A DNA stretch of 64,000 bases from Blasia pusilla (GCA_050084515.1 CM114271.1:15624001-15688000); one strand, 5' to 3'. Positions 18,227 through 53,640 are shown, numbered from the stretch's first letter. The notes: a model not told the origin generated them from the letters alone. Made by a program: numbers and translations.

Positions 18227-18612
18227 CATTAGTCATCCATAAGCAATGCATGTCGCTCTTGATAAATAATAATCATTTAGCACACACTATATACATTTGG
18301 GACAAAAAAAGGAACCATATTTGAAAAGGAAGGGGGGGGGGGAGGGGGGAGGGAGGGGTGCGAGGGCTTGCCCTTGTGGTACGGTACACACACTGGTTTC
18401 CGACCTATTTAGCATTAGTCATCCATAAGCAATGCATGTCGCTCTTGATAAATAATGACCATTTTGCACACTATATACATTTGGGACAAAAAAAGGAGCC
18501 ACATTTGAGGGGAGGGGGCGAGGGCACACTACTTAGCCCCCTTCCCTCCCCAATAGGGATGCAAGGGTTGGCCCTTGTGATACGGTACACATTGGTTTCA
18601 TGCCTATTTAGC
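18227..18612. repeat. tandem duplication, 2 x ~190 bp
   Basis: CATTAGTCATCCATAAGCAATGCATGTCGCTCTTGATAAATAAT begins at 18227 and 18413. Confidence 0.85.
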
Positions 18613-21830: not shown

Positions 21831-22535
21831 CAAGGTTGCACACAAACAAAGTCTGTGTCGGTGGACTTATGTCCGTTCTATGGACGGACATGTCCGTGGG
21901 GGCCCGGGTACCAAGGGCCCGCACCCGATCCCGCATCCAGGCTCACAGCCCGGCTTGAGGCAGGCTCGAAGCCCGCCTTGGGCTGCAAAAATTTGGTATG
22001 TTGGACCCAAAATTTGGTATGCTGGACCCAAAATTGGTTTGCCGGACCGAATTTTGCGGGCCTTGAGCCCGTATGTGGGCTTGGTGCGGCCCAGGGTGCG
22101 GGCTTTGAGCCCCCAAAATTTTGGTCGGCCGGACGGAAAGATGGTCTATCGGACCAAAATTTTCGGGCCCTTAGCCCTCACCCCAAGCCTGCATGTGCCC
22201 GCTTGGAGCCCGCACTTGCCCATTAAGAGCCCACGCCCAGTTAGCTCCGCGCCTACCTGCCCTAGCCCCTGCCCAAGAAACCCTAAGCTCGCGCGAGACC
22301 GCACTTGCCGATTGAAGGCCGCACTTGCCCACCCAGAACCCGCGCCCAATCAGCCTGGGGCCTACACCTGCCCACGCTTGCCCGCTTTAAGCCCAAGCCT
22401 ATCCGACCTGCGGAACAGGCAACGGGTGCGGGCTGTGTCAGTCGGAATCTAGGTGGAGGGCTCTGAGGCGGGCTTGGGTGCAGGTTGGGCATGTCTGAGG
22501 ACATGTCTAGAGTTTTTGGTTTCCGTGCAACCTTG
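21831..22535. mobile_element. hAT MITE (705 bp)
   Basis: Perfect TIRs CAAGGTTGCAC/GTGCAACCTTG; exact TSD CATGTGGT. Confidence 0.92.
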
Positions 22536-22884: not shown

Positions 22885-23416
22885 CTTAGAGAGCAGGTTT
22901 CCCCTTTGTTTCGGCTCATTTGGAGTCATTTTGAGGAACTTACTATTCAAGGTAGGTTTCCATTTGGAGCATAGTTGAATTTCCACTTTGGGAAGTGGCC
23001 CTTGACCTGCTATAGTAGGTCAAGAGCCAAGGAGGTGACCTTCAAGCATAGGTTACTGAGGAGAGAGTTTGGGAGAGGGAAGGGGGTATACCTCCAAGAG
23101 AGAGAGCTTGAGAGTTCATTCTCTCTTTGTTGAACCTCTTGGCATGAGGCGGCGAAGCTATAGTCTTGCTTTCCTTGTGTGTGTAACCCAAGCCTCTCAT
23201 AAGGAGAGTGGGTTTGGTTTGACATGAGAGAGAGTGTGCACACCATGGAGAGATTAGTGTGAGATGTGATGAGAGATCTACTTGTTTTATTGGAGATATT
23301 TTGGTACTTCTCGTATCGTTGTCTGGATGCCATGAGTTAGCATGGGATCCTGCGTATTTATGTGTGTGTTTGGTGAAAGCAATGTATGTTGTGTAGCAAT
23401 GTGTATGCGTACAACA
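22885..23416 (+). repeat. 5'-truncated LTR, same family as 8402-9044
   Basis: Colinear similarity to 8507-9044 (GAGAGCAGGTTT...TTCGGCTCA; AGGTCAAGAGCCAAGGAGGTGAC; ...ACAACA end). Confidence 0.88.
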
Positions 23417-23439
23417 GAATCATGATATCCATCATGCCA

Positions 23440-26099: not shown

Positions 26100-29000
26100 G
26101 TGGAGTGAATTTATTTTTAGGTTTTGGTCACGACTCCATTTTATGTGAAACTTTGCAAGGGAGCTACATACACCTAGGGGATCATGTCTACCAAGTTTCA
26201 ACTCAAGATGACATACTTGAACAAGATGAAAAATGAAAAGACCCCATTTTCATTGGAGGTTTAAGGACGCGAGTCAAAAAATGGGATAATAAAATTTTTA
26301 GATTTTTGTCACAGCTCTATTTTTTATGAAATTTTGCAAGGGATCTACATGCACCCAGGGAATCATTTCTCCCAAGTTTCAAATCAAGATGACATAATTG
26401 AACAAGATAAAAAATGAAAATACCCCATTTTCATTGGAGCTTTAAGGACGCGAGTCAAAAAATGGGATAATAAAATTTCTAGATTTTTTTCACAACTCTA
26501 TTTTTTATGAAATTTGCAAGGGAGCTACATGCACCCAGGGAATCATGTCTCCCAAGTTTCAAATCAAGCTGACATACTTGGAGAAGATGAAAAATGAAAA
26601 GACCCCATTTTCATTGGATGTTTAAGGGCGCAAGTCAAAAAATGATATGATAAATTTTGAGGTTTTGGTCACAACCCCATTGGACTTGAAACTTTGCAAG
26701 GAATCAACATACATTCAAGGGATCATTTCAACAAAGTTTCAACTCAAGATGACATACTTGAACAAGATGAAAAATCAAAAGAACCCATTTTGAATTCGAG
26801 GTTTAACGACGCCGGTCAAAAAATGTGTTAATAAATTTTGAGGTTTTGGTCACAACTCCGTTGGAATTGAAACTTTTCAAGGGAGTTACATACACCATGG
26901 GGATCATCTCTACCAAGTTTCAAATGAAGAGGACATACTTGGAGACGATGAAAAAATGAAAAGACCCCATTCTCATTGGAGGTTTAAGGGCGCGAGTCAA
27001 AAAATGAGTTTATAACTTTTGAGGTTTTGGTCACAACTCCATTGGACTTGAAACTTTGCAAGGAATCTATATACACCCAGGGGATCATTTTAACAAAGTT
27101 TCAACTCAAGATAACATACTTGAACAAGATGAAAAATCAAAAGAACCCATTTTGAATTCGAGGTTTAACGGCGCCGGTCAAAAAATGTGTTAATAAATTT
27201 TGAGGTTTTGGTCACAACTCCATTGGAATTGAAAATTTTTAAGGGAGCTAAAAACACCATGGGGATCATTTCTACCAAGTTTCAAATGAAGAGGACATAC
27301 TTGGAGACGATGAAAAAATAAAAAGATCCCATTCTCATTGGAGGTTTAAGGGCGCGCATCAAAAAATGAGTAAATAACTTTTGAGGTTTTGGTCACAACT
27401 CCATTGGACTTGACAGAGACAATGGAAAAAAAGAAAAGACCCCATTCTCATTGGAGGTGTAACGGCGCGGATCAAAAAATGAGTTAATTAATTTTGAGGT
27501 TTTTTTCATAACTCTATTGGACTTGAAACTTTTCTAGGAATCTACATACACACTCAGGATCATACCCAGTCAAAAAATCAGTTGATGATGAGATACTTCG
27601 ACAAGAAGAAAAATTAAAAGACTCCATTTTAATTGGAGGTTTAGGAGCGCGGATCAAAAAATGAGTTAGTAACTTTTGAGGTTGTGGTAAGAACTCTATT
27701 GGACTTGAAACTTTTATAGGAATCTACATACACACTCAAGATCATGGCCACCAAGTTTCAATTGATGATGATATACTTCGACAAGGAGAAAAATTAAAAG
27801 ACTCCATTTTAATTGGAGGTTTAGGAGCGCGGATCAAAAATTGAGTTAATAACTTTTGAGGTTTTGGTCACAACTCCATTGGACTTGAAAAATTTTTAAG
27901 GAGCTAAATACAACCTGGGGATCATGTGTACCAAGTTTTAATTGAATATGAGATACTTGGACAATATGAAAAATCAAAAGACTCAATTTTAATTGGAGGT
28001 TTAAGAGCGCATGTCAAAAAATCAGTTAATGGTCACAACTCCATTGGACTTTAAACTTTGCAAGGGAGCTACATACACCCTAGGGATCCTGTCTACCAAG
28101 CAAGGTTGCACATGGAAAAATTTCGTGTCCTCGGACATGTCCATGTCTGCGGACTTATGTCCGTGCGTGCCTGGGTACCCTAGCCCGCATCAAGCCCGCA
28201 CTTGAGCCCTCCCGCAGCCCACACCCATTGCGTGGACCACATCTTGGCCTAGGGCGGGCCTTGAGCCCGCGCTTGCCCACTTGGAACCCTCACCTACCCA
28301 TGCCCTGCCCGCGTATGCCCGCGTCTGCCCGCTTGGTGCCTGCATATGCCCGTCTAGAGCCCGCGCCCAATGAGCCTTGAGCACGCACTTGCCCGCTCTG
28401 AGTAGGCGCCTGCCTGCTCTAAGCCCGCACCTGCCCGCCCTAGCCCATGCCTGCCCGCCTCAAGCCCGCACCTACCCGCTCGGAGCTCGCACCCGCCCGC
28501 GCCTGCCCGCCTGGGGCCCGCGCCCAATCAACTAGGAGCCCGCACCTGCCCGCCTTAGCCCGTGCCCAATCAACCTTGAGCCCGCACTTGCCCGCCCTAG
28601 CCCCGCGCCCAATCAATTGAGAGCCCACACTTGCCCGCCTCGAGCCCACACCTGCTTGCCCGGAGCCTGCACTTGCCTGCCTGGAGCCCGCCCTGCGGGC
28701 CATGCAACGGGTACGGGCTCCGTGAGCCGACATCTACGGGGCAGGCTCGGGGCGGGCCTGTGTGCGGTGCGGAAATGTCCGAAGACATGTCCGTTTCCAT
28801 GCAACATTGCTACCAAGTGGTAACTCAAGATGACATACTTGAACAAGATGAAAAATTAAAAGACCCCATTGTCACTGGAGGTTTAAGGGTGCGGATCAAA
28901 AAATGAGTTAATAATTTTTAAGGTTGTGCTCACAACTCCATTGGACTTGAAACTTTGCAAGAAATCTACATATACTTTGGGGATCATGTCTACAACTTAA

Positions 29001-30150
29001 GATGACATACTTGAACAAGATGAAAAACGAAAAGACCCCATTTTGAATCGGAGGTTTAAGGGCGCAGGTCAAAAAATGAGTTAATAACTTTTGACGTTTT
29101 GGTCACAACTCCATTGGACTTTAAAAATTTCAAGGAATCTACATACACCCTGAAGATCATTTCTACCAAGTTTCAATTCAAGATGAATTACTTGGGTAAG
29201 ATGAAAAATAAAAAGGACTCCATTATCATTGGAAGTTTAACGGCGCGGGTCAAAAAATGAGTTAATTAATTTTGATGTTTTGGTCACAACTCCATTGGAA
29301 TTTAAACTTTATTATGAATCTAAATACACAATAGGGATCATGTCCACCAAGTTTAAATTGATGATGAGATACTTTGACAAGAAGGAAAATCAAAAGACTC
29401 CATTTTAATTGGAAGTTTAAGAGAGCGGGTCAAAAAAATGAGTTAATAAATTTTGAGGTTTTGGTGACAACTCCATTGGACTTGAAACTTTGTAATGGAT
29501 CTAAAGTTACCCAGGGGATCATGTATACCAAGTTTCAATTCAAGATGACAAACTTGAACAAGATGAAAAATCAAAAGTCTCCATTCTCCTTGGAGGTTTA
29601 AGGGCATAGGTCAAAAAATGAGTTAATTGATTTTGAGGTTTTAATCACAACTCCATTCAACTTGAAACTTTTCTAGGAATCTACATACACCCTAGGAATC
29701 ATTTCTACCAAGTTTCAACTCAAGATGACATACTTGAACAAGATGAAAAATGAAAGGACTCCATTGTCATTGGAGGTTTAAGAGCGCCGGTCAAAAAATG
29801 AGTGAATAAATTTTGAGGTTTTGGTCACAACTCCGTTTTATGTGAATTTGCAAGGGAGCTACATGCACCTAGGGGATCTTGTCTACCAAGTTTCAATTGA
29901 AGATGACTTACTTTGACAAGATGAAAAATGAAAGGACTCCATTTTCATTGGAGTCCTTTCATTTTTCATCTTGTTCAAGTAGGTCAAAAAATGACATATT
30001 AATTTTTTAGGTTTTGGTCACAACTCCATTGGACTTGAAACTTTGCAAGGAAGCTAAATTCAACCTGGGGATCATGTATACATACTTGGACAAGATGAAA
30101 ATTAAAGGACTCCATTTTCATCGGAGGTTTAACGGCGTCAGTCAAAAGTT
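26100..30150 (+). repeat. tandem array of ~180-181-bp units (~18 copies), interrupted by a MITE
   Basis: AAGATGAAAAAT.AAAAGACCCCATTTT recurs at ~180-bp spacing (26223, 26404, 26584, 26764, ...). Confidence 0.93.
28101..28809. mobile_element. hAT MITE (709 bp) inserted in the tandem array
   Basis: CAAGGTTGCAC...ATGCAACATTG; exact TSD CTACCAAG; dense GCCCGC motifs. Confidence 0.92.
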
Positions 30151-30339
30151 CACGAGTAGCTTCTTAGCTAGGGCTAACACTCTTAATAGAATGATTTTTC
30201 TAAAATAATTTATGAAATCTCCTTATCAGTAGAAGAAAAAAAACGTCATAAAATATGTAAACTCTTTTTTTAAATAATAAACACAACAATTCAATTTATA
30301 TCATACAAACATTTCAATCGTTGTACCTTCCACCTTACC

Positions 30340-31496
30340 CAGGGACTTGTGAGATAGTAACATGGCCTTTTGAAGACAATATGGATGCCAATAACAGGCT
30401 TTATATGTGCCTGTCAGGTAGCAATCCTCAACGGCAATAGAGTTGAAGCATATCATACATTTGGGCCAATTGTTTGGCGTAAGGGCCCCTCCTTCAACTA
30501 ATGCGATTGCCTTCATCCAATCAGGCAGATCTTGATCTTGTCTGCTTGGATTGAGAGGTGTTAGGGCCAACATCAAAGAAGCATAGTTGGCAGCATTTGG
30601 ATCCATAACATTGTCCCATGTTGCGCATAGGGCAAGAGGTCACAACTGCTTGATAGGTTGAAATAAAATCATATCCATCCCCTTTACAAGATGACCCTTA
30701 AGTAGAGTTGTCTCAAGGGTGATTTCTCCCACGTTACCCCTTGCTCTGCATGGCAGCAATTCATCCATCTCTTGCTCACGTCTTGCCATGATGGATTCAT
30801 ATGCCTTCCTCCACTGTTTGGTGTGTCAGCCATGATAGCTCTTTGTCTTTGATGGAGTTCATCTCTGGAAATCGATTCATTCACAATCCTCTCCATCTCC
30901 CTCTTAAGTCTCCCATGCTCTTTTGACAACTTTTGATGCTTCCCCGTCAAAATGTTGAATTCCACTTGCAAATCAAAAGTACGTTGGGATTTTTTATCAA
31001 ACTCTCCAACTATGATAGACGAGACATAACCTCGTTATTGTTGGGAGCACTCTCCCGGAGTCTCCCCACAAGAGCCCGCATTGTAGTCATGGCCTACATT
31101 GTAGTCATTCCTACTATTTTTTCTATCCTCAAGATATTACACTGCTTCCACCCCCATCATAACTCGCCCTTCATCTTTGCCTCTAGGGTTTCTTAACGAT
31201 CCACCTTGTAGGTATTGGCTTGGTAACAATCCTGTTGATGAAGGTTCTACTCTTGGTTTTTTGTTTGAGGCAATGGGGTGCAATCCTCTTCAACTCTACG
31301 CCTCTTGTCACTTCTTCGAGACGTGTCCTCCACATCACCATAATGGACCTCCATGTCCTTCATTAACTCCGCCACTTTGAGCTTGACAAGTACCTTGCTC
31401 ACTAACTTCCTCTTCTTCGAAATGAGACTCTCGTAGTCCGGAAGGCCATTGAACAATGCCCAATCCTTTTGACACTCTTTCTCCTCCACTTTCCTT
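30340..31496 (-). pseudogene. coiled-coil/RING cargo gene, outer copy, 3' part (truncated within RING)
   Basis: VEEKECQKDW..MKDMEVHYGDV; EFNILTGKHQKLSKEH; NNWPKCMICFN..CYWHPYCLQKAMLLS; colinear with 33657-34890. Confidence 0.8.
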
Positions 31497-31838
31497 CAAG
31501 GTTGCACGCGGACAAAGTCCGTGTCCGCGGAGATATGTCCGTCCCAAGGACAGACGTGTCCATGCGGGCCCAAGTGCGGGCTCCATGAGCTTGCGTTGCC
31601 CGCGGCTTAGCACATCAGGGATGTGGAGATGATAAAGGAACCTTGTCTAAACACGCCCATATCTACCTATTCCCTTTGAGAGCCCAACCCTAAACTTCCA
31701 TCATTCACGAGCTGGTATATTTCAAGCCATTTTTTTAGCATCTCACGTCGTTCTCTTTTCGGTATTTTCTTATCTCAACCTGCATATTTCTTTCCCTTGT
31801 ATTTTTTAAGATATTATTATCTTCTTCATCCGAGGGAA

Positions 31839-33210
31839 ATGTCTAGTGGGGCAAAGTCATCGAGAGCGGGAGAGAACCAAAATGAATCCAACATTGGTGC
31901 CAAGAGGCAAGGAGCAACTCTGAGGAATGATTTCAACATGGCCGTAAGAGAGGCATGGTTAGACTGGTTTTTCCAGCTTTCTTTAGAAAGAGAAGATCCT
32001 GCATTTCAAGGGGTATGGATGGTTTACATGACTACATCTTGGAATTGCAGAGATTGTCCAATAGAGTGGCAAAGGTATTTGACTAAGAAGTGGATGCCGC
32101 GGAGGCTGATAGGTTGATTGAATTTTGTGCCCAACAAGGTGTTAACCTAGAGAGAGCGAATATCAATCTCAAGATATATAAGGATAAGAAGCAGAATGTT
32201 GCAAAGTTGGCTCTCATAGAAAGATTTTGTATAGAAGTGCTTAACGTCTTTTCAAGGGATGTAGTACTTCTCTAGGGTTGACATTGACCGTTCCATGTGC
32301 AATAACTTTGATTTCCGCTAAGAATGTAGTAACAGGACATGACCCGAACAATATTTTGGGAACCGATTTACATGGAATTGTGGACCATTGTAAAATAAAT
32401 GGAACCCGTGGCATTAGGGAAGAAATGTACTATTGCATGAAGGTGTATAAGGAATCATCTCTATCAGGATCTAGAAAATTGATGATACGAGAGGAGTTAT
32501 TTGCAAGTATTTTACATCGCGATGTTGTGCGCATGGTAGGAAGGTTGATCAAGGATCCACCACGTGCCATTTTTCCATATTGGAATGGTGGACATCTCAA
32601 AAATTGGTTGCGAGCATGCCATAACTTGAAGAACGGCGCGGGTAATCTAGAAGGGTTGGAAAATATGAGATGTCTCGCAATAGCATCAAATGTCCTCCAA
32701 CTTGTGGTTGTTGTTCTTGGTACCATGAAGACTGTCTATAAGCGTCGGGTTTTTCATACCAACCTCCATGCTAGAAAGATGTTCATCCATTTTGGATCCA
32801 ACTCTAGCCCTTACATCGGCGTTGGAGATTGGGGGAATGCCATGTGGAATGATGAAGTCTTAGAGTCTCCTCATAGATGATGGCAGTATGAACAAAAAAA
32901 TTATGTTGGGCATATAGCACCGGAGTTGATAGCAGGGCTTCTAAATCTCCCTTTTAGCAAGGCCACTGAAATCTATGCCCTAGGATGATTGTGAAGAATT
33001 TGAACTATGTGACATACAACCTCTCTGTCAGGAATGCCCAAGCGAACGTGAGATTTACTTATTTGGGAAGGATTTAAAAGTGGACATTAGCTCCAAATCC
33101 CTTTGATCGCAAAAGCTTAGAGTTACTTATTGCATATATCAAAGAAATGCAAAAGTATTAGGTGTAGACGATGTAGATTCAGGATTAAGGCCAATAACAG
33201 TGGTAGTATG
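31839..33210 (+). pseudogene. atypical protein kinase with ~150-aa N-terminal domain, inner copy
   Basis: ILGTDLHGIV (G-loop), YCMKVYK, PYWNGGHL, FHTNLHARKMFIH, VGDWG, HIAPEL, ATEIYALG; frameshifts/stops; no introns evident. Confidence 0.82.
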
Positions 33211-33405
33211 ATTGTAAACTCGTTTGAGGATTGGATATTTTTCATGAGAAATGAAAAACTTGGTTCAAAAAGATGAATGTGTTACTATGAAATTTTGTAA
33301 ATGATGAATCTTTATTGATGTGCGAATGTATCGTGTGCCCTTGTATCACTATTATTGGAATCATTTCTAAATCACCTTTCTTTTTGTATTTCGATAAAAG
33401 ACAAG

Positions 33406-35640
33406 ATGGAGTTGCCACCTCATGAAGACTGTAGCCCTCACGACAATCAAGACAACAGAAGAGGGGAAGAACCCCTTGATACACTGACACCAGAGATCCC
33501 TCCGAAGATGAACAAGAAGACGATCTCGCAATTTGTCATGGAAGATGAATTAAAGGCGCACTTGGATAACGCCATTGACCCACAAGTTTTGAAAGGAGAG
33601 TTCAAGAAGTCGTGGCTGAAGTGGCCGCAGCGTGCAATTGGAGAATTTGCAAGGAAAGTGGAAGAGAATGATTGGACAAAGGATTGGGATTTATTCGATG
33701 GCGTCCAAAAGTAAGAAGACCTCCCCAAGAGGAAGTTAGTGAGCAAGGTATTTGTTCAGCTCAAAGTCGCAGAGGTTGATGAAGGATATGGAGGTCCAGT
33801 ATGGCGATGTGGATGAGGGATCTTTGAGAAGAGATAAGAGACCAAGAGAAGAAGACAGTAGAACCCCACAACAATACTTTAAACGAGCAAGAGTGGAAGC
33901 TTCATCACCACGAGCGTCGTCACGCCATTATCAGCAAGGCGGATTGTCAAGGAGCCTTAGAGCCATACTATCTTCCTTGGATGGTGAAAGAAGAAATCTT
34001 CGTGCTGAAGAATATATACAAGATGAGATTGGAGATGAAGGGCGAGTATAGATGGGGGCACAGGATAGACAAGATGGTTTGAATGACCTCTATGTAGATC
34101 GTAGTACGAGCTTTGATGAGCCCGGGGAGAGTTCTGATCGCCCTATACATTGTGATGCTCATCCCCAAACCTTTTGTGGGGAGAGCGCTCCACATAATAG
34201 CAAGGTAATCTCTCGTCTATCACAGTTGGAGAGTTTAATAATAAATTCCCAACACAATTTTGATTTGGCCGCGGAATTCAACGTTTTGAAGGGAAAGTAT
34301 GAACAACTATCTCAAGAGCACATCAGATTGAAGAAAGAGGTGGAGAGGCTTTTGAATGAATCTATTGCCAAAGATGACCTCCAAAGAAGGCAAAGAGCTA
34401 TAATGGTTGACCACACAAAGCAGTGGAGGAGAATATATGAGAACATCATGGCAAGACGACAACAAGAGATGGATGAATTGTTGCGATAGAGAGGAAGAGG
34501 TAACGTGGAAGAACTCACCCCGGAGACAACCCTACTTGAGGGTCGTCTCGTGAAGGAGGTTGATATGATCTTATTTCAACCTCTCAAGCAGTTGTGGCCT
34601 CTTGCTCTATGCACAGCATGGGACAATGTCATAGATCCAAACGTTGCAAACTAAACCTCTATCATGTTGGCACCCACGCCTCTTAATCCGAACACACAAG
34701 TGCAAGATCTTCCGGATTGGATGAAGGCAATTGTAGTATGTGAAGTAGGGGCCCTCACGCCAAACAATTGGCCTAAATGCATGATATGTTTCAATCACAT
34801 TGTTGCAGAAGGTTGCTACGTGACAAGCACATGTAAAGCTTGTTATTGGCATCCATATTGTCTTCAAAAGGCCATGTTACTATCTTACAAGTGTCCAACT
34901 TGTAGACAAGCTTGGTGAGGAAGACTCTATCACCTTTTCGGCACATCTTTCCGCACTCTTGATAGCAATTCACCACCCACTTATCGCAAAGTAACCCAAG
35001 AGCAAGAAATTTCACTTTTAGTTTGGGACATCGTAGCCCCCAATCGAACTATAACCCCGAAGTGAACATAGACAGGGTGGTTCAAGCAGAAATCCCTCGC
35101 AAGCAGAGGATTGATCGAGCAATGCAAGCATGGTTGGTCTGCTTTGTTGATATGTACGATGGAGGAGAGCTCATCCACAGAATAGCCAATGAACTCCAAA
35201 ATCGAAAGGCGGAAAACTTCTTCTTTGCTCAAGGGTTGAGTTCACAAGAAGTTCGAGACGCCCTCAACACAACTCGAAAACTTGTGCTAAACCATCATCA
35301 AAATCCATTAATGGATGAGCTTGTTTTGAGGAGACTCGAATTGATCTTGCGACCTTTCTTATGGCAAGATATTCCTCAAAAAACTGAAGGCGGATATCCT
35401 CGAACATACTATTACCCTCGTCAAATGCAAGAGGAACTCTTTGGATTCTTCGAGAGAGAGTGGCAGATGTTTCCGACACAGCCAACACAAGAAATTGATG
35501 ATGGTGAAGCTGATATTGAGTTGGAAAGGACTATTCCCCGTTGAAGTGGGACGCACGTGAATAGAGCTAGGGGAAGAGAAGGAAGAAATGGTGAGACGTC
35601 GGCACCGGTGTTACATATATCGGATGATGAATCAGATTAG
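33406..35640 (+). pseudogene. coiled-coil/RING-finger cargo gene, inner copy (35023-35544 may be its C-terminus or a third gene)
   Basis: MELPPHED.. start; helical EFNVLKGKYEQLSQEHIRLKKEVERLL; RING-like CMIC..TCKACYWHPYC..KCPTC (34778-34903); fragmented ORFs colinear with the outer copy. Confidence 0.75.
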
Positions 35641-36459
35641 AGAGAATGAGTTGATATTTATATCTTTGTAGTGTACATAAGTATTAGGTTCCTCTCAATC
35701 CAGATATTTTTTGGGGTACTCCTCATTTGTTGTAAAATATTTCAAAAAACTTCAAAATATTTCACTCAAGAAACTTGTGAATATGAGCCGATCACAAATG
35801 CTGTCCATGAAGTGAGTTCATGAAATGGATGAAATTTTTCTCTTGAGTTATAAATCCTTGGATAAGGAGGAAGATACCATAATTGAATGATTTGTTTGAT
35901 ATAGATTTGATTTGTTTTATTACTAACTCCTAAAAAATTACTAACTCATCAAAATAAGCGATTTTCTCTTATTTACTGAAAGATGGGGATTGGAAAAGGG
36001 ATGAATTTTGTTTCTGAAAGTAATGAAGGAAAATATCTGTTTGAATTGAATTGTAAGGGAAAATAATGTATGAATTTTTTTTAGTGACCAATATTGCATG
36101 GGGTAGAATTTGAAAGGGACTTGGATGGAATAGAAAACCAAATTTACTTATTAATTCATTTTTTATTTAATACTATAATAGATGAATATAAATAATACTA
36201 AATTTGTATAGATTTGAAAATTTAGATAAACAAATTCAGAGGTGCCTTGATTCATATGTAATGGCAAGGGAAATTGAATTTTAATGGAGAATGAATGGAT
36301 TTGGTTTGAATTTTATGGAAGAATGAATTTACTTTAGGGAGTAGGGTATCACTTACATTTGATTGCAAGAATGAAACGTAAGAACCTTTCTAACATTCTA
36401 TAGAATAGTGCAGATATTCCCCAAGTAATATCTATCACTTTGGCAAAATCTCATCCCAA

Positions 36460-39400
36460 ATTAAGTTTAAAATGACCTTTTGGACCCGAAGCAGATAACC
36501 TTGAATGAAAAAAAAATGTCTTTAACCTGACATCTTGTCCAACGTTTCCATCTTGAGCTAAAATTTAACCCACGTGGTCTCCAAGGTGAATCTAGAGCTC
36601 TTGCCAAGTTTAAAGCAAAATGGAGTTGGGACCACAAGCTCAAAATTTGGCAAGTTCTTTTTGGACCCGAACCATCAGACCTTCTGTCAAAATAGGGTTT
36701 TTTCATTTTTCATCTTGTCCAAATTTTTCATCTTGAAATTTTTTCCCACATAGTGACCAAGGTGTATCTAGCAATCTTGCCAATTTACATGCAAAATAGA
36801 GTTGGGACCATGAGCTCAAAATTTGGCAAGTCCTTTTTGGACCCCAACCATCAGACCTTCTATCAAAATAGGGTTTTTCATTTCTCATCTTGTCCAAAGT
36901 TGTCATCTTGAGCTGAAATTTGGTCCACATGGTCCTCACGGTGCATATTACACTCTCGCCAAGTTTCAATCAAAATAGAGTTTTGAGTAAAAGCTAAAAA
37001 ATTACTAACTCCTTTTGGACCCGAACCATTAGACCTTCTACCAAAATAAGGTTTTTTCATTTTTCATCTTGTCCAATTTTGTTATCTTGAGTTAAAATTT
37101 GACCAACATGGTCCCCAAGATGCATCTAGAACTCTTGCCAAGTTTCAGGAAAAATGGAGTTGTGAGCAAAAGCTCAAAAATTACTAACTCATTTTTGGAC
37201 TCGAACCATCAGACCTTCTACCAAAATAAGGTTTTTTCATTTTTCATCTTGTCCAAAATTTTCATCTTGAGCTGAAATTTGGCTCACATGTCCCAAGATG
37301 ACCATAGCACTCTCGCCAAGTTTCAAGAAAAATGAAGGTGTGAGCAAAAGCTAAAAAAAAATCTAACTCCTTTTTGGACCCAAACCATCCGACCTTCCAT
37401 CAAAATAAGGTTTTTCATTTTTCATCTTGTCCAAAATTTTCATCTTGGGCTTAAATCTGGCCCACATAGTCCCAAAGCTGACCCTAGGACTCTTGCCAAG
37501 ATTCAAGCAAAATGAAGTTGTGAGCAAAAGCTAAAAAATTCTTACTCCTTTTTGGACCCGAACCATGAGACCTTCTATCAAAATGAGATTTTTTCATTTT
37601 TCATCTTATCCAACCATGTTATCTTGAGCTGAAATTTGGCCCACATGGTCCCCAGGGTGACCCTAGCTTTCTTGCCAAGTTTCACACTAAATAAAGTGGT
37701 GAGCAAGAGTTCAAAAATTACTAACTACTTTTTGGATCCGAACTATCAAACCTTCTACCAAAATAAGGTTTTTTTCATTTTTCATCTTGTCCAACCTTGT
37801 CATCTTGAGCTAAAATTTGGCGAACATGATCTTCAAGATGCATATAGCACTCTTGTCAAGTTTTATGAAAAATGGAGTTTTGAGAAAATGCTCACAAATT
37901 ATTAACTCCTTTCTGGATCCGAACAATCAAACCTTCTATGAAAAAATGGTTTTTTCATTTTTCATCTTGTCCAACTTTGTTATCTTGAGCTGAAATTGGG
38001 CCCACGTGGTCCTTAGGGTGCATGTTACACTCTTGCCAAGTTTCAGTCAAATGGAGTTGTGAGAAAAAACTAAAAAATTTATAACTCCTTTTTGGACCCG
38101 AACCATCAGACCTTCTATCAAAATAAGGTTTTTTCATTTTTCATCTTGTCCAACTTTTTCATCTTGAAATGAAATTTGGCCAGCATGGTCCCCAAGGTGC
38201 ATCTAGCACTCTTGCCAGGTTTTAGGCAAAATGAAGTGAGCAAAAGCTAAAAAAATTCTAACTCCTTTCTTGACCCAAACCATCAGACCTTCTATCCAAA
38301 TAAGATTTTTTCATTTTCCATCATGTCCAACTTTGTCATATTGAGCTGAAATCTGGCCCAAATGGTCCCTAAGGTGACCCTAGATTTCTTCCCTAGTTTT
38401 AGGCAAAATGAAGTGGTGAGGAACAGCTCAAAAATTTCTAACTACTTTTTGGATCCGAATTATCAAACCTTCTACCAAAATATGGTTTTTCCATTTTTCA
38501 TCTTGTCCCAATTTGTCATCTTGAGGTGCATTTTGGCCAACATGGTCCCCAAAAGTGCATCTTGCACTCTTGCGAAGTTTCAGGCAAAATGGATTTTTGA
38601 GCAAAAGCTCAAAACTTACTAATTCATTTTTGTATTTGAACCATAAGACCTTCTACCAAAATAAGGTTTTTTCATTTTCATCTTGTCCAACTTTGTCATG
38701 TTGAGCTGAAATTTGGCCCACATGGTCCCCAAGAGGACCCTTGCTTTCTTGCCAAGTTTCACACAAAATTAATTTATGAGCCAAAGCTAAAAAAATTCTA
38801 ACTCCTTTTTGGACCCGAATCATCAGACCTTCTATCAAAATAAGGTTTTTTCATTTTTCATCTTGTCCAACTTTGTCATCTTGCGGTCCATTTTGGCCAA
38901 CATGGTCCCCAAGGTGTATCTAGCACTCTTGCTAAGTTTTAGACAAAATGAAGTTGTGAGCAAAAGCTTAAAAATTACTAACTCCTTTTTAGACCCGAAT
39001 TACTAGACATTCTATCAAAATAAGGTTTTTTCCATTTTTCATCTTGTCCAACTTTTTCATCTTGAGCTGAAATTTTTCCAACATGGTCCCTATGGTGACT
39101 CTAGAATGCTTGCCAAGTTTTAGGAAAAATGGAGTTGTGAGCAAAAGCTAAAAAATTACTAACTCCTTTTTGGACCCGAATTATTAAACCTTCTATCAAA
39201 ATAAGGTTTTTCCATTTTTCATCTTGTCTAACTTTTTCATCTTGAGCTGCAATTTGGCCCAAATGGTCCCCAAGGTGACCCTAGCTTTCTTGCGAAGTCT
39301 CAAGAAAAATGAAGTTGTGAGCAAAAGTTCAAAAAATTCTAACTACTTTTTGGACCCAAACCATCATACCTTCTATCAAAATAAGATTTTTTCAATTTTC

Positions 39401-39660
39401 ACCTTTTCTAAATTTCCCATCTTGAGCTAAAAAATTTTCTACATGGTTTCTAAGGTGTCTGTTTCACTCTTGCCTAGTTTGAACCAAAATGGAGTTGTGA
39501 GGAAAACCTCAAAAATATGTAATTACCTTTTGGCCCTGAACCACTAAACCTTCAATGGAAAGAAAGTTTTTTCATTTTTCATTATGTCCAACTTTCCTAA
39601 CTTGTGTTTGTAGCACTCTTGAAAATTTTTGAGCAAAATGGAGTTGTGACCACGAGCTCA
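36460..39660 (-). repeat. tandem array of ~180-bp units (~18 copies), inverted homolog of 26100-30150
   Basis: TTTTTCATTTTTCATCTTGTCCAA recurs every ~180 bp; reverse complement of the array-1 core TTGAACAAGATGAAAAATGAAAA. Confidence 0.93.
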
Positions 39661-39827
39661 AAAATCACACTTACCAATTTCATCTTCAATGTAAAAATAA
39701 ATGCATTATTAGCGAGAAGTATATAAAAAGGAATGTCATAAAAATGACATTCTTACAATAGTCAACACAAAATAAGTTTGCTACAACTATCTATTAATCC
39801 ATCTCACTAAATTTTGTAATTACTCTT

Positions 39828-41365
39828 CTAGTCTAGTCTGTGGTTGGGTCCACTGGATTAAGATGTAAGCGGTAATTTGGCGGCTCAATAGTTCAAAGTC
39901 GGGTGGATCGGCGACGAGTTCCTATTGCAAATATTTCATCATCGAAGGAAATGTATGAACTATCTATGCCATGATTGATGGGTTGAGAGTTTGGAACCAT
40001 AGGTATAAGAACAGCATTATCATTAGGCTCATCAACGAAGTCCACCGTTTCAGCGCTCAAATATTATGGAGGAGTATCCCGGTTCACTAGACTTGGTGGA
40101 ATAATTGTGAACTCCTACTGGTGCAACAATGTGAGGGTCGTAGGTCGTGTTAGGAGAAGTGCTGGGGAGATTGGCGGCTTCGCTTGAAGTCCTCCGTTGT
40201 TGCTCTTCTTTGTGCTCTCAAATCCAATCTTCCATTTCAACATCAACATCATCTTCGTCTCTTCCAAGCCCCTCAAAATCAAAATTTTCAGAGTTGCCGA
40301 TATGAGTATCCCCTCTCCCTTTGATGCCATGAATTCCACATCTACCTCCTCTAGGTCCTTATCTTGCAAGTCAAGGTTATCTTCATGATTACCATCACGG
40401 TTTCTTGCATGCAAGCTAGATTCACTACCATCTTCTACTACCCTTCTAACTTGTTCTTGTCCATCCCTTTTGAAAAATATTGCTCGTACAAGAGCGCTTG
40501 TCTTGATTTCTGAGAAACACCCTTGCCTCCAAACCTTGAGTTTGTGTAGATGTAAACCAAATCCCTGCCACGCTCGTTGGTCAATTTATTCTTGTGCTTG
40601 TTGTGGATGAAACCATAACTACTCCAATTTGTCTCCGCTAAAGAAGATGAAATCACTTGTAGTAATATGGACTTAGCCACAGAGCGCAATGTTGGTGCAC
40701 CTTGACCGTGCATGCTCCACCAATCAGAGGGACTAAGTGAATCAACAACTTCCCTACCAAATTCATCCACAAATATTTCGTGATGGTTCACAATGTTGCC
40801 CAACTCTTTCAAGCAAGTTGCCACATAAGAATAAGCCTTAGTGACATTGAGGCCATACACCCACGTTGCATAAAGTTTCAGATATTGTTTGAAATCTCTC
40901 ATGCGCTCAGCATTTGAAGTGACGTCTTGAACATTATCAAGAAGATTGTAAGGGGCGAGAATGTAGCCTATTGCATGTATCATGTTGTGGATAAGTGCCC
41001 ACTACCTAGAAATAACAACGACCATCTCTATAGCTCTAGACATTGTGATAAAATAACCGAGATGCCTTCCGCCCACACCGGGCCATGGAGTTACAGGAAA
41101 AGAACGACTCTCTTGCATTATCTCAAAAATACGGCGATAAATACTCCGAGTCATTGCTTTATGACCATCACACTCTCTCAACAAAATAATAGTTGGTTTA
41201 GCCGCAACAAACAACTCCTCATCCTCCATCCAAAAATCGTGATTGGCCACAGTAGTCTCAATCTCTCGTGCTTTCTCCCTTTGCCTCGCATCCCTACCAT
41301 TAAAATACTCGCTAAAAGCATAGATGGCAACCATGGCATGGAACGCCTCCCTCAATTCTAAGATG
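39828..41365 (-). pseudogene. hAT transposase, inner copy, 5'-deleted
   Basis: ILELREAFHAMV..EYFNGRDARQREKA; DWWSMHGQGAPTLR..SSLAETNWSSYGFIHNKHKNKLTNER; colinear with 24390-25931. Confidence 0.92.
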
Positions 41366-41564
41366 CGTGAGATGGTAGTATTTGTGAAGACTAGAAACAC
41401 CAAATATTTTCCGTGAATGCTCCAATAACAAAACTTGGAATACTCACTATGGACAAGAAAGATCAATATGCTAACTTAGATAACCAAAATACCTTTAGTA
41501 TCTAGGTTATCTAGTGGCAAAACATATTCTCACTTATCAAGTTCACCTATCTATGGAGAAAAAG

Positions 41565-41569
<5 letters not shown>

Positions 41570-41607
<38 letters not shown>
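41570..41607. repeat. (GA)n microsatellite
   Basis: ~19 GA units. Confidence 0.95.
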
Positions 41608-41610
<3 letters not shown>

Positions 41611-43237
41611 AGGGAGGAATGAGATTGTGTTGTATACCAAAAAAATGAGCAAGTTTATATGGGGGAGGATGAAAGGAAGAGAATGAACCCTTCTAACTCC
41701 CCAAATCATCTACATCCACTTATAATTGATTACTAAACCATCTCCATTAATTTTCTTTAATAAACCTATTTTTATTCTCCTATTAGATTTCTTCTTGACC
41801 TAGTTTAAATTTCCAACATACCTATTTTGCAATACAACCACCCTATTCAAATCTATTTTAATATTCCTTTCTCCACCATTAGGATCCCAAATTCATCAAT
41901 TACTCTCATTTCTAACTAACTTATATTCTCCTACAACAACCCTATTCCAACCTCTCAAATAGTCAATCACCCAAACCATAATAGTGACACAATTTATTTA
42001 ATACCTCACTAAAATCACATGGCCCGCCCACAACCCATGGCCCGCACGGTCCGCAAGGAGCCAGTGCGCTGGCTCTGCACGGGCTGCGAGCCTGCAATGC
42101 ATGCCATTTGCGGGCTCCAAGGTCTGCAGGCAGGCCTACGGGCCCTCACCCAAGCCCGCACGCGGGCTCCAAGTCATGCACAAAGCCCGCAATACGGACC
42201 TTAGAGTCTACACGCAGGCTCTACGCGGGCTCCAAGGCCCGCAACAAGCCCGCGCTAGCGGGCTTGGTGGCCCGCATGCGAGCTTGGAGGCCCGCGACAT
42301 AGCCGGAAAGCGGGCTTCAGGGCCAGCAACTAGTCTGCACGCAGTCTCGGAGGCCCTCATGCAAGCCCGCGCCAGGCTCCTCGGCTCGCAATCAACCTGC
42401 ACCCTAGCCCGCAAGCAGCCCGCACGCAGGTACGATGGGCCCATGACCTAGCTTGAAGGCAGGTTCCAAGGCCTACAACAAGCCTGTGCGCAGCCTCTGC
42501 AGCTCGCATGCGAGCCCATGCCCTAGCCCGCAAGTAAGCTGGGCTTCACGGTCCGCATCCTAGCACGCAAGGAGCCCGCACCGTAGCTCGCTTGCAGGCT
42601 TGAAGGTCTGCAAGCAGCCCATAATCAGCCTAGACGCGGGCTTCAGGGCCCCCAAGCGAGCTACGACGCGGGCTCCTTGGAGACGGGCTCCAAGGCCCGC
42701 AATGAGCCTGCGCACGGGCTCAAGGGCCGGCGACCTAGCTCGTAATCAGCCGGGACGCAGGGTTTAGGGTCCGCACCCTAGTCCGCATGCTGGATCCAAG
42801 GCCTGCAACGAGCCCGCCACCTAGTCTGCAGGCGTGCTCCAAGGCCCGCACCCTAGCCCACGCGCGGGTTCCAAGGCTTGTGACCTAGCCCGCGTGTGGG
42901 CTCAACGGCCCGCAAGCAGCCGAAACGCGGGCTTGGCGGCCGGCAAGCAACTTGGACGCGGGCTTCAGGGCCCGCACCCTAGCCTGTATTCGGGCTCCGA
43001 GGCCCGCATTGTAGGCCCTGGAGCCCGCACGTCATGCTCGCTTGCAGCCCGCCTTGCTTTTGAGGCCCACACCCTTCATCGGAGCCCGCATCGGTGGCCT
43101 GCAAGTGGAGCCCGAGCGATCAATCTGAGCGCCACAAATACCTGTGCTCGCGTAGGGTGGTGTATGTCCGTGGTCATGTCCAGACATGTCTGTCCCATGG
43201 AAGGACTTGTCCGTTATCGTGCAACCTTGATTTTCTT

Positions 43238-43467
43238 GCAAATTCTCCAATTGCACGCTTCAACCACTTGATGCGCCATTTCTTCAACTCTAGGGAAAGG
43301 ATCTGTGGGTCAAGGGCGCTATCCAAGTGCGCCTTCAATTCATCCTCTATGACGAATTCTCTGACCATCTTCTTAGTCACCTTTGCACACGTGGGCAGTT
43401 GTTCTTCCCCTCTTCCATCACCCTCTTCGTCGTGAGGACTATCGCCTTCATGAGGTGGCAGTGCCAT
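43238..43467 (-). pseudogene. coiled-coil/RING cargo gene, outer copy, 5' part
   Basis: MALPPHEGDSPHD...EDELKAHLDSALDPQ..AIGEFARK, homologous to 33406-33656. Confidence 0.85.
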
Positions 43468-43705
43468 CTTATCTTTTACCAAAATCCAAAACAAAATAGT
43501 GGTTTAGAAAATATTCCAATAATAGTGACATGATGAAATTTGGATACATCCATGGATCAACCAAAAATAATCATTCACAAACATTCCGAGTCACAAAATT
43601 GACCTCTTTCAATGAAGTATTTATTTTCTCATGAAAACACTTACAATTGGACAACGGATTTACATTCACATCATCGTAGTAACTAGCCGCAATGCTGAAT
43701 CTACA

Positions 43706-45053
43706 TCATCTATACCTAATATTTTGGCATTTGCTCATATATGCAATAAGATACTCTAAGCTTTTGAAATCAGAGGGATTCAGAGTTGATGCCCACTTTC
43801 TAATCCTTTCCAAGTAAGTAAATCTCACATTCGCGTGGGCATCCCCAATAGTGAGGTTGTATGTCACATAATTCAAAATTTTCACAATCATCCCTAGGGC
43901 ATAGAATTCAGTGGCTATGCTAAAAGGGAGATTCTTAGGCCCTGCTGAAAACTCCGGTGCTATGTGCCAACATGATTTCTTTGTTCATACTGCCACCATC
44001 TATGAGGTGACGCTAAGCACTCATCCTCCCATATAGCATTTCCCCAATCTCCAACCGTGATGTATGGGGTAGAGTTAGCTCCAACATGAATGAAAATGTT
44101 TCGCGCATGACAATCGGTGTGAAAAACCCCACTCTTATGGAAAGTCTCCATGGTACCAAGAAGGGCAACCACTACTTGGACAATATTAGACACCATCGCA
44201 ATACATATGATATTTTCCAACTCTCCTATATAAGTCCTGCCATTCTCATGGTATAGCATGCTCGCAACCAATTTTCAAGGTGCCCACCATTCCAATATGG
44301 ATAGATGCAACGTGGCGGATCCTCCATCAACCTTCCTACCATGCGAACAAAACCTCGATGTAAAATAGTTGCAAACATCTCCTCGCCCATCATCAATTTT
44401 CTTGAATATAATCAAGTTGATTCCTTAAACACCTTAAGGCAATAGTAAATATCTTCACTAAAGGCAAAAGTTTGGTTTATTTTACATCTGTAGATAGTTC
44501 CGTGTAAACCTGATCCCACAATATCCTCTTGATTATTTCCTACCATAAAGTTCTTGTAAAAAATCCATGTAATCCCACATGGAACTATCAATGTATGACC
44601 CACGGTAGTACTACGTCCCTTGAAAAGACGTTCAGCATTTCTTAACTCAACACTAAACCTTTCAATGAGCGTGGTCTTTGCAGCATTCAACTTCTCATTC
44701 TTGAATGCCTTGAGATTGATATACACTCTCTCGAGGTTAACACCTTGTTGGCCACAAAATTAACTTAACCTATCGGCCTCTTTGACATCCATTTCCCATT
44801 GAAATGTCTTTGCAACTCTCCTAGCTAATCTTAGCAATTCCAAGGTGTAGTAATGGAAACCATCCATACCCCTCAAAATATATGATCGTCTCTTCTCTAA
44901 CGTAAGCTAGAAAAGTCAATCTAACCATGCCCCTCTTATAGCCATGTTGAATTCATTCCTGGAATTCACTCTTGGCCTCTTGGCACTAACAAGTCTATCA
45001 TTGGTCTCATTTTGGTTATCTCTTGCTCTTGAAGACCCAACTCCACTAGACAT
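43706..45053 (-). pseudogene. atypical protein kinase, outer copy
   Basis: MSSGVGSSRA start; IVGSGLHGTIY, YCLKVFK, FHTDCHARNIFIH, VGDWGNA, APE, YALG; colinear with 31839-33210. Confidence 0.85.
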
Positions 45054-48000
45054 TTTGCTCGGATGAAGAGGATGATAAAATCTCCTTAGAAAAAAAAACC
45101 AACAAAAAGATAGTATGCGTTGAGATAAGGAATTACCAAAAAATAAAATGGTATGAGATACTAAGACAATGGCTCGAATAATGCTCACGCGCGTGAATGA
45201 AGGAATAAGGTTTTGGCTTAGGTAGGTCACTCAAAAGGAATGTATGCTTGTTAAGATAAGTTTCATTGACTACCTCCACATCCCAAATGTGCTCATAGAA
45301 TAAATGAACAAATCTATAACTTGATTTTGTGAATCAAAAATCTCAAAATCACCAAACAAGTTTAGTGACATAAGAGATTTCCACACTCACAACCTCTCAC
45401 CTAATGTGGAATCAATTGGGGTTTGTTTAGGACACAACCAGGAGCGCAAATATCCAAGTGTATCACAAACAAAACCCAAAAACCCCCAAAAGGCCCGCAA
45501 CGGATTTCTCCAAAATTCCTAGAACCCTTGAAAGCCCTTAGCTATCAAGAAACCAATGAAATTTGGAGCCTAATCTAAGAAACACTCAAAGAAACGATAC
45601 AAAATGAGATAAATCAAGGAAATGAGGGATAATTGGGGTTGATTAGCCCCAATCCCCCTCCTTATGAGCATTTTTGGGCCCACTTGTGGGCCCAAAACTT
45701 ATGGGTTTATCCCAAATGAGGAATGGGAGGAGGAAGGAGGGTAGATAGGAGGTTCGAAATTTTCCTAGACAACCCTACTGTGCCACATGGCGGCCCAAGA
45801 TTTGGGAGAAGCGGGCCACACGCATGCTAAGCGGGCTTTTAAAAAATAGACACGTGGCATCACCCGATTAGCTAGATTTGACATGGGCTATTGCACGGGA
45901 AAAGGCTCGGATGGAGTGGGTGACGGCTCAGAGGCCATGGGCGACGGTTCAGACGGCGTGGGCTACGGCGCAGGCATGTGGGCTTGAGGCCCGTGCGCGA
46001 GGGGGGAGGGAGGGGGTGGGCGGGTGGGCGGGCGGGCTCCTTTGCAGGCCAGGGGGGTGGGCGGGCGGGCGGGCGGGATCCTTTGCAGGCCAGGGGGGTG
46101 GGCGGGCGGGCTCGCGTGCAGGCCGGGGGGGGGTCACCGCAACAAATCAGAGGGCGCAACGCAGGCCCAACTTGTCCGGGACACCAGCCCGCAGACCAAG
46201 CATAAATTGTAAACGCTGCCTAACAAAACAAATGGAAACCGCTGCCCAAACCCGCCTCTCGAGAGTGCAATTTTTGCCGACAGCAAGGTGCAAACATAAA
46301 AAGACAGGGACATCAAGGTGCGGGCGTTAAAAAGAGAGGTGATCGCTGCCAGTTTAAAAAGGGCAGCCGCAACCCTTTCAATGGTAATAGCCACGGGACT
46401 ATCACAAACAATAGAGTGCCTGGAGCAGCTCCTTGACCCGAATTGAAACCATGCCCACCCGAATTGATGCGTCATTCTAAAGCCTACCCACCCAAGAGAC
46501 ACGATCAAAATTCAAGAATCCAAGAGTAAAAAATAGAAAGGGAAATTGGCTGCAAGGGGCAAAGAAGGGATCCGAGCTGCCAAGTAGAAGGAAAAGCGCT
46601 GCACTTGAATAGATCTCAGAGAAAAATTCTTGCAAAATCCTAACAAGATAGACCAGCACCGCGGGGTAGAGCATCTGTGCGTGGGTGCGACTGAGAGAAA
46701 CAGCGTGGGGTAGAGCAGCAGACCCCAAATGCGAAGAACATTCAAAAGTTACAATCGTCCTCGATTAGCAGCGCATGAGGGGAAGGAATGAGCGCGTAAG
46801 CAAACGAAGGCAGCGCGTGGGTAGGAGTGCGTGGGGATCGACAGCCCGTGGGTAGGAGCGCGTGGGTTAAGGCCCTCGAAAGCACAAAATGAAAGGGGAG
46901 AGAGTTCGGGAGGGGAGTCGTTTAGGGAGGGCTCAGACAGAGAATGGATACGAAGCCGTTTGGGGGCAAGGAGAACCATCGGTCCCCGATCGCCGGAGGC
47001 GAGGCCCATTGATCAGGGATCGATGGCCCTCAGGGAGGTGGAGGCACCTTACTATGGCGGCGGAGTTTGGGAGCCCTAAGGTGGCGGTCCCCGAAGGCAG
47101 GGAGAGTCGTCAATTCTCAATCAACGGCTATAAGGCGGCGGAGGTGAGGGATCCCTAATCGACGATCCTCAGGTGGCGGAGGCGAGGGACGACGGTCCCC
47201 AGGTGGCGGATCCAAACTTTGGGTGGCGGTGGGGTAGCGATAGGTTCGGAGTGTTGGATTCTCAACATCCACTTCTCTTAGCACCATTAATCTGATCGGC
47301 CCCCTTATATGAGGAGAAGCCTAGATTGATGGTTCCAACTCAGACGTCGAAGGTGTCATAGTAATATGACGTAGGTGGTTTCAGGAGTAGCGTTACTAGG
47401 ATTATCTAACCCTATATTGCATCAGGGTGCGGGGCACCCTGATGCGTAGCGGAGGTCGGGAGGTGCAGCCCCTGGTATGCCAAGACGACGCGGGGGTCCA
47501 AGGGCGCAGCCCCCAACAAAAATTTTCTATTAATAGAAATGAAGAAAAATAGGTAAAAACCCTAGTTTCCCGAGTAGTGAAATAGTCGGGAGCCACAGCG
47601 ATAGCGTATTCTCGTATGTGGAGTTATCTCCATGTTCAGGTTCCATCGAAGCTCTTCTATGAGCGCACGGACGAACTAGGCCACAATGACGCCTTCTATT
47701 ATACTTTTTTCGGATAACCTAATAACTTTGATCGTGTGTTCTAACCTTATTTTTGGACTGACCTCCCATTCCATCAAGTCTTAAGGATTTGCGTGACTTC
47801 CAAAAATTGATGCGTATGAATGCGCAAAGAAAAAGGTGTGCCCTTTGTAAGGAGATTTTAGCACAACAAAAAAACATGGAAGTCGAACTTCTGCCTGAAA
47901 CATCTCCAACCTAAGTTGACAACGATAATTTAGTATTGTCACAACTTCTAATATTATTCTCTAAATCCTCCATTGTCACACCTTCTCATATTACTTTATT

Positions 48001-48359: not shown

Positions 48360-53640
<5,281 letters not shown>

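Follow-up and report, generated by a model that had tools for sequence, protein, structure and literature searches.

A decayed hAT transposon of Blasia pusilla that probably carries a kinase gene and a RING-like gene as its own accessory genes

We describe a transposable element in a stretch of 64,000 nucleotides of the Blasia pusilla genome (GCA_050084515.1 CM114271.1:15624001-15688000), which we call the window and which is a eukaryotic, dense transposon nest. The element spans 31497-43229 (11,733 bp), has hAT-type ends and lies inside an older, diverged copy of itself; we refer to the two as the inner and the outer copy. We consider it probable that the inner copy is a decayed, transposase-deleted member of a high-copy hAT family that carries a kinase, a RING-like gene and a further open reading frame (ORF) as its own accessory genes. 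Three results carry this interpretation. The cargo genes move as one unit inside the terminal inverted repeats (TIRs) and have been amplified together; purifying selection acted on them as strongly as on the transposase during the divergence of two subfamilies; and a distant relative indicates that the pairing of kinase and transposase is much older than the family in the window. The features of the element are as follows, with the strand given where a feature has one (TSD, target-site duplication; dN/dS, ratio of non-synonymous to synonymous substitution rates).

31489-31496: left TSD, CTTTCCTT, for which a paralogous empty site gives confirmation
31497-31508, plus strand: left 12-bp TIR, CAAGGTTGCACG, with its exact reverse complement at the right end
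31509-31610, plus strand: left subterminal region with repeated GTCCG/GGAC motifs, from sequence comparison
31839-33250 (3′ end approximate), plus strand: gene 1, an intronless kinase pseudogene, from PF07714, its relatives, dN/dS and RNA reads
33406-34918, plus strand: gene 2, a coiled-coil/RING-like pseudogene, from a sub-threshold PF13639 match, the ligand pattern and dN/dS
34966-35544, plus strand: ORF3, an open frame of 192 aa of no recognisable family, at full family read depth and not in the outer copy
36475-39608: non-coding array of some 17 tandem 180-bp units, from repeat analysis
41475-40438, minus strand: what is left of a hAT transposase, its C-terminal part of about 345 aa, with the PF05699 dimerisation domain
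41397-41924: non-coding internal segment, 73% identical to 19024-19559 of a 6.2-kb family member, with (AG)n at 41569-41607
42030-43217: GC-rich right subterminal repeats of GCCCGCA type, 1.2 kb
43218-43229, minus strand: right 12-bp TIR, CGTGCAACCTTG, a perfect, inverted match to the left TIR
43230-43237: right TSD, ATTTTCTT, with the same confirmation as the left one

The hAT signature consists of 8-bp duplications, short TIRs and many derivatives resembling MITEs (miniature inverted-repeat transposable elements). Here the 12-bp TIR is common to the family members, and an 8-bp TSD agrees at all eight positions in three members, at seven in one and at six in the element at 31497-43229. For the latter, a paralogue of the empty site is preserved inside the element itself (33640-33670), with the octamer AAGGAAAG present once in the context GCAAGGAAAGTGG; in the older copy the octamer flanks the insertion on both sides, and alignments of the copies overlap at 33651-33657. 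Because the uninterrupted homologous site holds the octamer only once, we take the 8-bp TSD to be real and to have acquired two later substitutions. The TIR motif occurs at 14 sites in the window at no more than two mismatches, against 3.95 expected, six of the sites being exact, and none of 100 shuffled sequences reached 14. An earlier note on this DNA, made from the sequence alone, had described perfect 11-bp TIRs, a near-exact 8-bp TSD and the order TIR, kinase, coiled-coil/RING gene, array, convergent transposase, TIR. The TIRs are indeed perfect, with a length of 12 bp; the TSD is backed by the empty site; and the order is as described, with the 192-aa ORF now added between the RING gene and the array.

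To see the family beyond this one copy, we placed about 1.97 Gb of raw whole-genome shotgun reads of the same species on 30150-36470 at 80% likeness or more. A total of 4741 reads were placed, only 10 of them at 99% likeness or more. If these 10 are taken as the locus itself, single-copy depth is about 0.24x and the genome very roughly 8 Gb, both with a wide error. Family depth is 83-163x (both read directions summed) in every bin of 31627-35635, which holds the kinase, gene 2 and ORF3, and is lower, 40-76x, over 35636-36470; over 30150-31415, which is sequence of the outer subfamily, it is 10-39x. From the even depth we put the kinase, gene 2 and ORF3 at some hundreds of copies. The alternative raised in the earlier note, namely that the kinase and RING genes are single-copy host genes duplicated only locally, is refuted by this excess of cargo reads over single-copy depth. 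At the left end, 46 + 183 = 229 reads leave the element exactly at 31496/31497 and run into flanks without consensus (agreement 0.35-0.37), the picture expected of many different insertion sites. The inner-type subfamily is several times commoner than the outer-type (about 85-160x versus 10-39x). Most reads are 80-95% alike to the window, so that the expansion of the family dates back some time and most of it has since decayed; 2585 of the 4741 lie only partly on the stretch, so that many copies must be diverged or fragmentary.

The reads also separate the history of this copy from that of its family. Among the 40 best-supported of 1557 read differences, the in-frame stop at 34652 reads TAT (Tyr) in all 111 reads that cover it, a base missing from the window copy after 32984 is carried by 82 of 112 reads, and the base at 33774 is lacking in 71 of 99. 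The damage is private to the window copy. Transcripts, for which the earlier note had suggested checking RNA-seq, are present as well: reads numbered 73, 90 and 104 in three RNA-seq runs, most of them less than 90% alike, with depths of 2-9 on the kinase gene, 1-2.5 on ORF3 and 0-1 on gene 2. The strand bias of these reads, seen on the kinase gene, flips between the two inverted copies, and we conclude that the direction of transcription is fixed relative to the element.

The outer copy repeats the internal order of the inner one. Its recognisable parts are:

23440-25520, plus strand: nearly full-length hAT transposase pseudogene with DUF659 core and hAT dimerisation domain
26113-30103: array of 180/181-bp units, split by a 709-bp family member at 28101-28809
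30345-31496, minus strand: the part of the coiled-coil/RING gene downstream of the insertion point, whose finger ends after the sixth ligand
43230-45295, minus strand: kinase gene, its MSSG start lying near 45010, together with the first part of gene 2

At the nucleotide level the copies are 73-82% identical in the cargo and 81-88% identical in the transposase. The second, diverged copy that the earlier note had placed at 23440-45295 thus exists, and with the gene order claimed for it, but its orientation is not the same: it is inverted relative to the inner copy and encloses it, the inner copy being nested inside its gene 2. Nor are 23440 and 45295 its ends. They are limits of homology rather than TIRs, and no termini of the outer copy were found, none lying beyond 45295. 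Both copies are pseudogenes, as had been noted, with stops and frameshifts throughout. The damage is complementary, however: the outer copy keeps the transposase core and lacks the end of the RING finger (the last ligand pair) and everything matching 34892-36475, including ORF3, whereas the inner copy keeps the RING end and ORF3 and lacks the 5′ half of the transposase. Because the losses of the two complement each other, a full element would be about 13 kb long and would consist of TIR, kinase, RING gene, ORF3, array, full transposase and TIR. In such a full form a DUF659-type transposase would lie on one strand, with the kinase, the coiled-coil/RING gene and ORF3 convergent to it on the other and the array between them. 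Just past the outer copy, GC-rich tandem repeats at 45872-46900 (GGGCGGGC-type, periods 37-41) recall the right subterminal repeats of the family; no TIR was found at them.

Could the kinase/RING block instead stem from an unrelated element or a host locus that was trapped by chance between two hAT ends? The surroundings would lend themselves to such a mosaic, with an RNase H at 6016-6792, a PIF1/Helitron-like helicase at 52731-53165 and hAT members nested in one another. Yet the cargo part contains no internal TIRs or LTRs (long terminal repeats), with neither these nor TSDs found within 31497-36500, the second copy shows just the same order, reads cover the sequence from the TIR to the end of the cargo at an even depth, and the same pairing recurs on the metagenome contig described below. 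We therefore regard a chance mosaic as highly improbable.

The assignment to hAT also holds for the coding sequence at the right. The inner transposase remnant matches PF05699 (9.8e-9 / 2.9e-8, above the 21.4-bit cut-off), and an acidic tail follows it in another frame as far as about 40115. The earlier note was right about a hAT transposase convergent with the cargo genes, but what the inner copy has of it is only this C-terminal remnant. The outer transposase matches both PF04937 (DUF659; 5.4e-20, 72.1 bits against a cut-off of 34.7) and PF05699 (1.7e-11, likewise above the cut-off). The RNase-H-like core represented by DUF659 is present in the outer copy only, where the pseudogene state precludes judging the catalytic residues. 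No Pfam match to a BED-type zinc finger was found on 23136-23759, the 5′ end of the outer transposase being not delimited.

With two diverged copies at hand, selection on the cargo could be estimated from Nei-Gojobori dN/dS between them, pooled over in-frame pieces and with 95% bootstrap intervals. The kinase gave 0.44 (0.32-0.60; 298 codons; 0.66 and 0.96 for the same codons off frame), gene 2 gave 0.36 (0.27-0.47; 422 codons; 0.82 and 1.05 off frame) and the C-terminal half of the transposase 0.38 (0.24-0.61; 224 codons; 0.89 and 0.69 off frame). The RING segment alone stood at 0.22. A value near 1, named in the earlier note as speaking against its idea, is not what we find for either gene. 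Since then both copies have decayed neutrally, and the active lineages must have been more strongly constrained than these values show.

This bears on an explanation of the Pack type, by which an ancestral hAT took up host kinase and RING genes and amplified them as passengers of no use to the element. Such capture by DNA transposons, hATs included, is known: it is the subject of a review (PMC13317346), and hAT-mediated amplification of a housekeeping gene has been reported in fungi (PMC6710886). Like Pack-type elements, the family has non-transposase coding sequence inside its TIRs and in many copies. The explanation would also fit an inner copy that is non-autonomous, a RING gene without detectable relatives, and the loss of the RING end and of ORF3 from the outer copy. 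Pack-type cargo would, however, be expected to consist of variable, unconstrained fragments of host genes. Here the cargo is made of whole, full-length, intronless genes (gene 1 has about 470 aa, against 443-473 aa in complete relatives), two subfamilies that differ by about 25% have the same content, its dN/dS of 0.36-0.44 reflects constraint as strong as that on the transposase, and in a far more distant element the kinase is again linked to a hAT transposase. We hold passenger capture to be unlikely.

Gene 1 starts with MSSG and encodes, over some 470 aa in all, a region of about 135 aa followed by a divergent protein kinase domain, which matches PF07714 at 6.8e-7 / 5e-8 (29.3 and 33.0 bits, above the Pfam cut-off of 23.1). 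It is interrupted by in-frame stops at 32084, 32242 and 32878 and by several frameshifts. Its motifs are YWNGG, HT[D/N]xHAR[N/K], GDWG and APE; the outer copy reads HTD...N and GDWG, the inner copy HTN...K, GDWG and APE. A full HMMER pass over 1.84 billion proteins returned only 24 proteins at E<=1e-3, the best at 1.3e-12 with 29-30% identity, so rare is the clade. What its members have in common is YWNGG after the hinge, a catalytic loop of the form H-N-D-L-H-x-R-N-(I/V)-(L/F)-(L/I)-H-F, in which the catalytic-loop Lys of ordinary kinases is replaced by His in the family of gene 1, and G-D-W-G in place of DFG; the relatives retain H-N-D-L-H-x-x-N and D-W/F-G. Complete relatives of 443-473 aa have a helical N-terminal part, as gene 1 does. 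Of ten clusters looked up, a single one could be named, as a hypothetical protein of the liverwort Riccia fluitans. Compared with solved structures, the clade profile matched 2099 kinases, with GCN2, Trk, Kit, FGFR2 and RIPK1 equally good, and the resemblance is generic only. No fusion of a clade kinase to a RING or hAT domain was seen among 11 proteins from the profile search, which carried kinase Pfam domains only, and the kinase ORF had no match among longer proteins. Because the clade retains the catalytic Asp and Asn and the Asp of DxG, its members are likely to be active kinases.

Evidence on the age of the arrangement comes from metagenome contigs, which were scanned with a profile of the closer kinase relatives. 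Three loci were returned (L001, L002 and L003). On L001 there is not enough sequence for neighbours to be seen, and L003 encodes an unrelated kinase of an ordinary kind. L002, a contig of 3341 bp, encodes on its plus strand a kinase of the clade with YWNGG, HNDLHGRN and IDWG. Convergent with it, on the minus strand, are 375 aa of a hAT transposase (PF05699, 8.7e-9), the frame being open to the end of the contig. This transposase is 24% identical to the one in the window (E 2e-25), and by tblastn both of these L002 genes find their counterparts in the window, at E-values of 3e-22 and 2e-11. The same convergent pairing in so rare a clade of kinases is hard to ascribe to chance. The earlier note had called for testing whether cargo, transposase and TIRs co-occur elsewhere; in the species of the window, the 229 reads exit at the TIR into unrelated flanks, and on L002 the kinase stands convergent with a related hAT transposase. 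Of the three outcomes that the note had listed as refuting its idea, none was obtained. A search of viral contigs gave no match. Between the two genes of L002, an intact ORF of 223 aa with a Met start (1303-1974) could be the accessory counterpart of that element.

Since the pairing of kinase and transposase recurs in so distant an element, the cargo looks like the transposon's own tools rather than stolen host fragments. As far as sequence comparison reaches, deep conservation holds for the kinase only, and gene 2 has no detectable relative. The central inference of the earlier note, that of a dedicated accessory system, holds for the kinase and is plausible for the RING gene; anti-silencing, host manipulation and toxin-antidote action, which the note suggested, would be candidate functions.

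Gene 2 begins with a basic/acidic N-terminal part in which we read a motif like a nuclear localisation signal (KRPR..KRAR), continues with a coiled-coil stretch supported weakly by HALZ and Rab5-bind matches, and ends in a RING-like finger. In the inner copy the finger reads C-x2-C-x14-C-x2-C-x2-H-x2-C-x10-C-x2-C and so offers eight cross-brace zinc ligands, with the fourth displaced and Cys where His is usual. Its best solved matches, both weak, are the RINGs of RNF4 (E 1.1e-3) and Arkadia (0.014). The gene is disabled here by four stops, at 33712, 34049, 34487 and 34652, and by one extra base at 33774. Given the nuclear look of the protein and the RING-like finger at its end, one may reasonably guess that it would ubiquitinate nuclear targets.

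Between gene 2 and the array, ORF3 matched no Pfam family at E 0.001 and nothing in the Atlas at 0.9 or above; a single-sequence AlphaFold model had a mean pLDDT (predicted local distance difference test score) of 39 and was unusable. The array has a period of 180 and 17.1 copies over 36531-39595, close to the approximately 18 units of 180 bp first counted. In both subfamilies the unit is still exactly 180 bp long and the array stands in the same place; identity is 78% between the two consensus units and about 80% among the units of one array. A coding repeat was ruled out by stops in all six frames of both consensus units, and two units folded as DNA showed no notable structure (z -1.42).

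A narrower reading is that only the kinase is a true accessory gene, and that the RING gene, ORF3 and the array were added in this lineage and do nothing for the element. It would fit L002, which has kinase and transposase without a RING finger or array, the concentration of RNA reads on the kinase gene, and the sub-threshold RING match. Against it, the dN/dS of gene 2 is the lowest of the three genes, with the RING segment lower still, the array has held to its unit length and position in both subfamilies, and ORF3 is open after about 10% decay and present at full family depth. We find this reading doubtful, if somewhat less so than passenger capture.

Several observations weigh against our preferred interpretation, by which all the cargo genes are accessory genes of the element. 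The inner copy lacks the 5′ half of the transposase and its DUF659 catalytic core, homology to the outer copy starting from about 41370 / 24390, and part of the amplification may have been of such non-autonomous copies, whose cargo needs no function. Both window copies are dead, and no intact copy was seen directly among the 40 best-supported read differences. Over the end of the kinase domain (32881-33318) dN/dS in the window frame is 0.92, showing no constraint, in a part where the window copy is frameshifted. The gene 2 finger reaches 3e-5 against PF13639 (24.6 / 21.7 bits), below the cut-off of 27.3; gene 2 has no relative among proteins of similar length, and it receives almost no RNA reads. 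That transcription is sense-directed follows only if the libraries are of the usual deoxyuridine triphosphate (dUTP) type, their strandedness being assumed. Finally, deep conservation is documented by one informative contig of three loci, and the 223-aa ORF of that contig belongs to no Pfam family and is similar to neither gene 2 nor ORF3 of the window.

If the cargo genes are accessory genes, the kinase, and in this lineage also the RING protein, would act in trans and raise the element's own success. We favor the option that the two would phosphorylate and ubiquitinate nuclear host proteins, which could be silencing or chromatin factors or the repair machinery at sites of excision and integration. 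A second option is that they would regulate the transposase itself. The array could serve as a binding platform or could be merely an internal satellite. Taken to its widest, the proposal would be that an undescribed, old hAT lineage, spread across distant eukaryotes, encodes a kinase of the YWNGG/HNDLHxRN/GDWG clade, here joined by a RING protein and an array, and rewires host nuclear proteins in silencing, chromatin or repair for its own spread. This wider proposal we put forward tentatively, as one that may well prove wrong.

To our knowledge, autonomous plant hATs (Ac/Tam3/Tip100-like, in a wide sense) encode a transposase only. The family described here resembles them in its 8-bp TSD, short TIRs, subterminal repeats, DUF659 core with hAT dimerisation domain and many short MITE-like derivatives, and differs in having two or three further genes and a 3-kb array in an element of about 12-13 kb. 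A combination of kinase with RING or U-box is found in plant KEG and the U-box kinases, and a coiled coil followed by a C-terminal RING in BRE1/HUB and RNF8. The predicted cargo likewise pairs phosphorylation with ubiquitination and places a coiled coil before a C-terminal RING; unlike KEG, BRE1/HUB and RNF8, the element has two separate genes, and there is no sequence relation beyond generic domains. A closer parallel in kind may be VANC of the Mutator-like VANDAL elements, an anti-silencing protein which is reported to bind non-coding regions of its own element (PMC5735166, PMC10398659). Like VANDAL, the element is a DNA transposon that keeps a non-transposase gene, and its array could by analogy parallel the non-coding regions bound by VANC; unlike VANDAL, it is a hAT and not a Mutator element, and its accessory proteins would be a kinase and a putative E3 enzyme and not a DNA-binding VANC. 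In a search of full-text literature, no hAT element came up that carries a kinase gene or a RING gene; Repbase, Dfam, subscription journals and supplements lay outside this search, and a prior record is possible. In the review on gene capture and in an atlas (PMC13547354), none of the words 'hAT', 'kinase' and 'RING' is present.

We know cut-and-paste hAT transposons as elements usually described as having one gene. If our interpretation is true, the family would represent a new class of transposon accessory function, namely post-translational modification of host or element proteins, to which a RING-like protein has here been added. It would be a counter-defence or host-manipulation module made of enzymes and not of DNA-binding factors, and a concrete system in which to study how, in the face of silencing, DNA transposons of very large genomes can build up copy numbers in the hundreds. 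For the kinase clade, which is rare and unannotated, the hAT pairing is the first genomic context.

The TIR motif further pairs into five candidate members of the family elsewhere in the window:

11444-11773: MITE-like candidate, about 330 bp long, whose TSD is not clear (1/8, or 4/8 if the right end is at 11730)
14379-20546: non-coding member of 6168 bp, with exact TIRs and the TSD GGTGAGAC (8/8)
17290-17737: member of 448 bp inside the 6168-bp member, TSD 7/8
21831-22535: MITE-like member of 705 bp, TSD CATGTGGT (8/8)
28101-28809: member of 709 bp splitting the array of the outer copy, TSD CTACCAAG (8/8)

The left subterminal region of the large element is common to the members at 14379-14487 (82%) and 21831-21905 (80%). 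The 6168-bp member has no recognisable coding capacity, and what it has in common with the large element is this left end and a 530-bp right internal segment (19024-19559, 73%). An Rfam search over 11000-47000 gave no match. Short stretches resembling the family ends also occur at about 10792-10885 and 10098-10139. Among unrelated transposons of the window, an LTR-retrotransposon fragment with reverse-transcriptase RNase H domains lies at 5768-6792 (PF17917, 7.1e-28; the RNase H at 6016-6792), and a PIF1-like helicase fragment at 52731-53165 (PF05970, 5.5e-14) is possibly the remnant of a Helitron.

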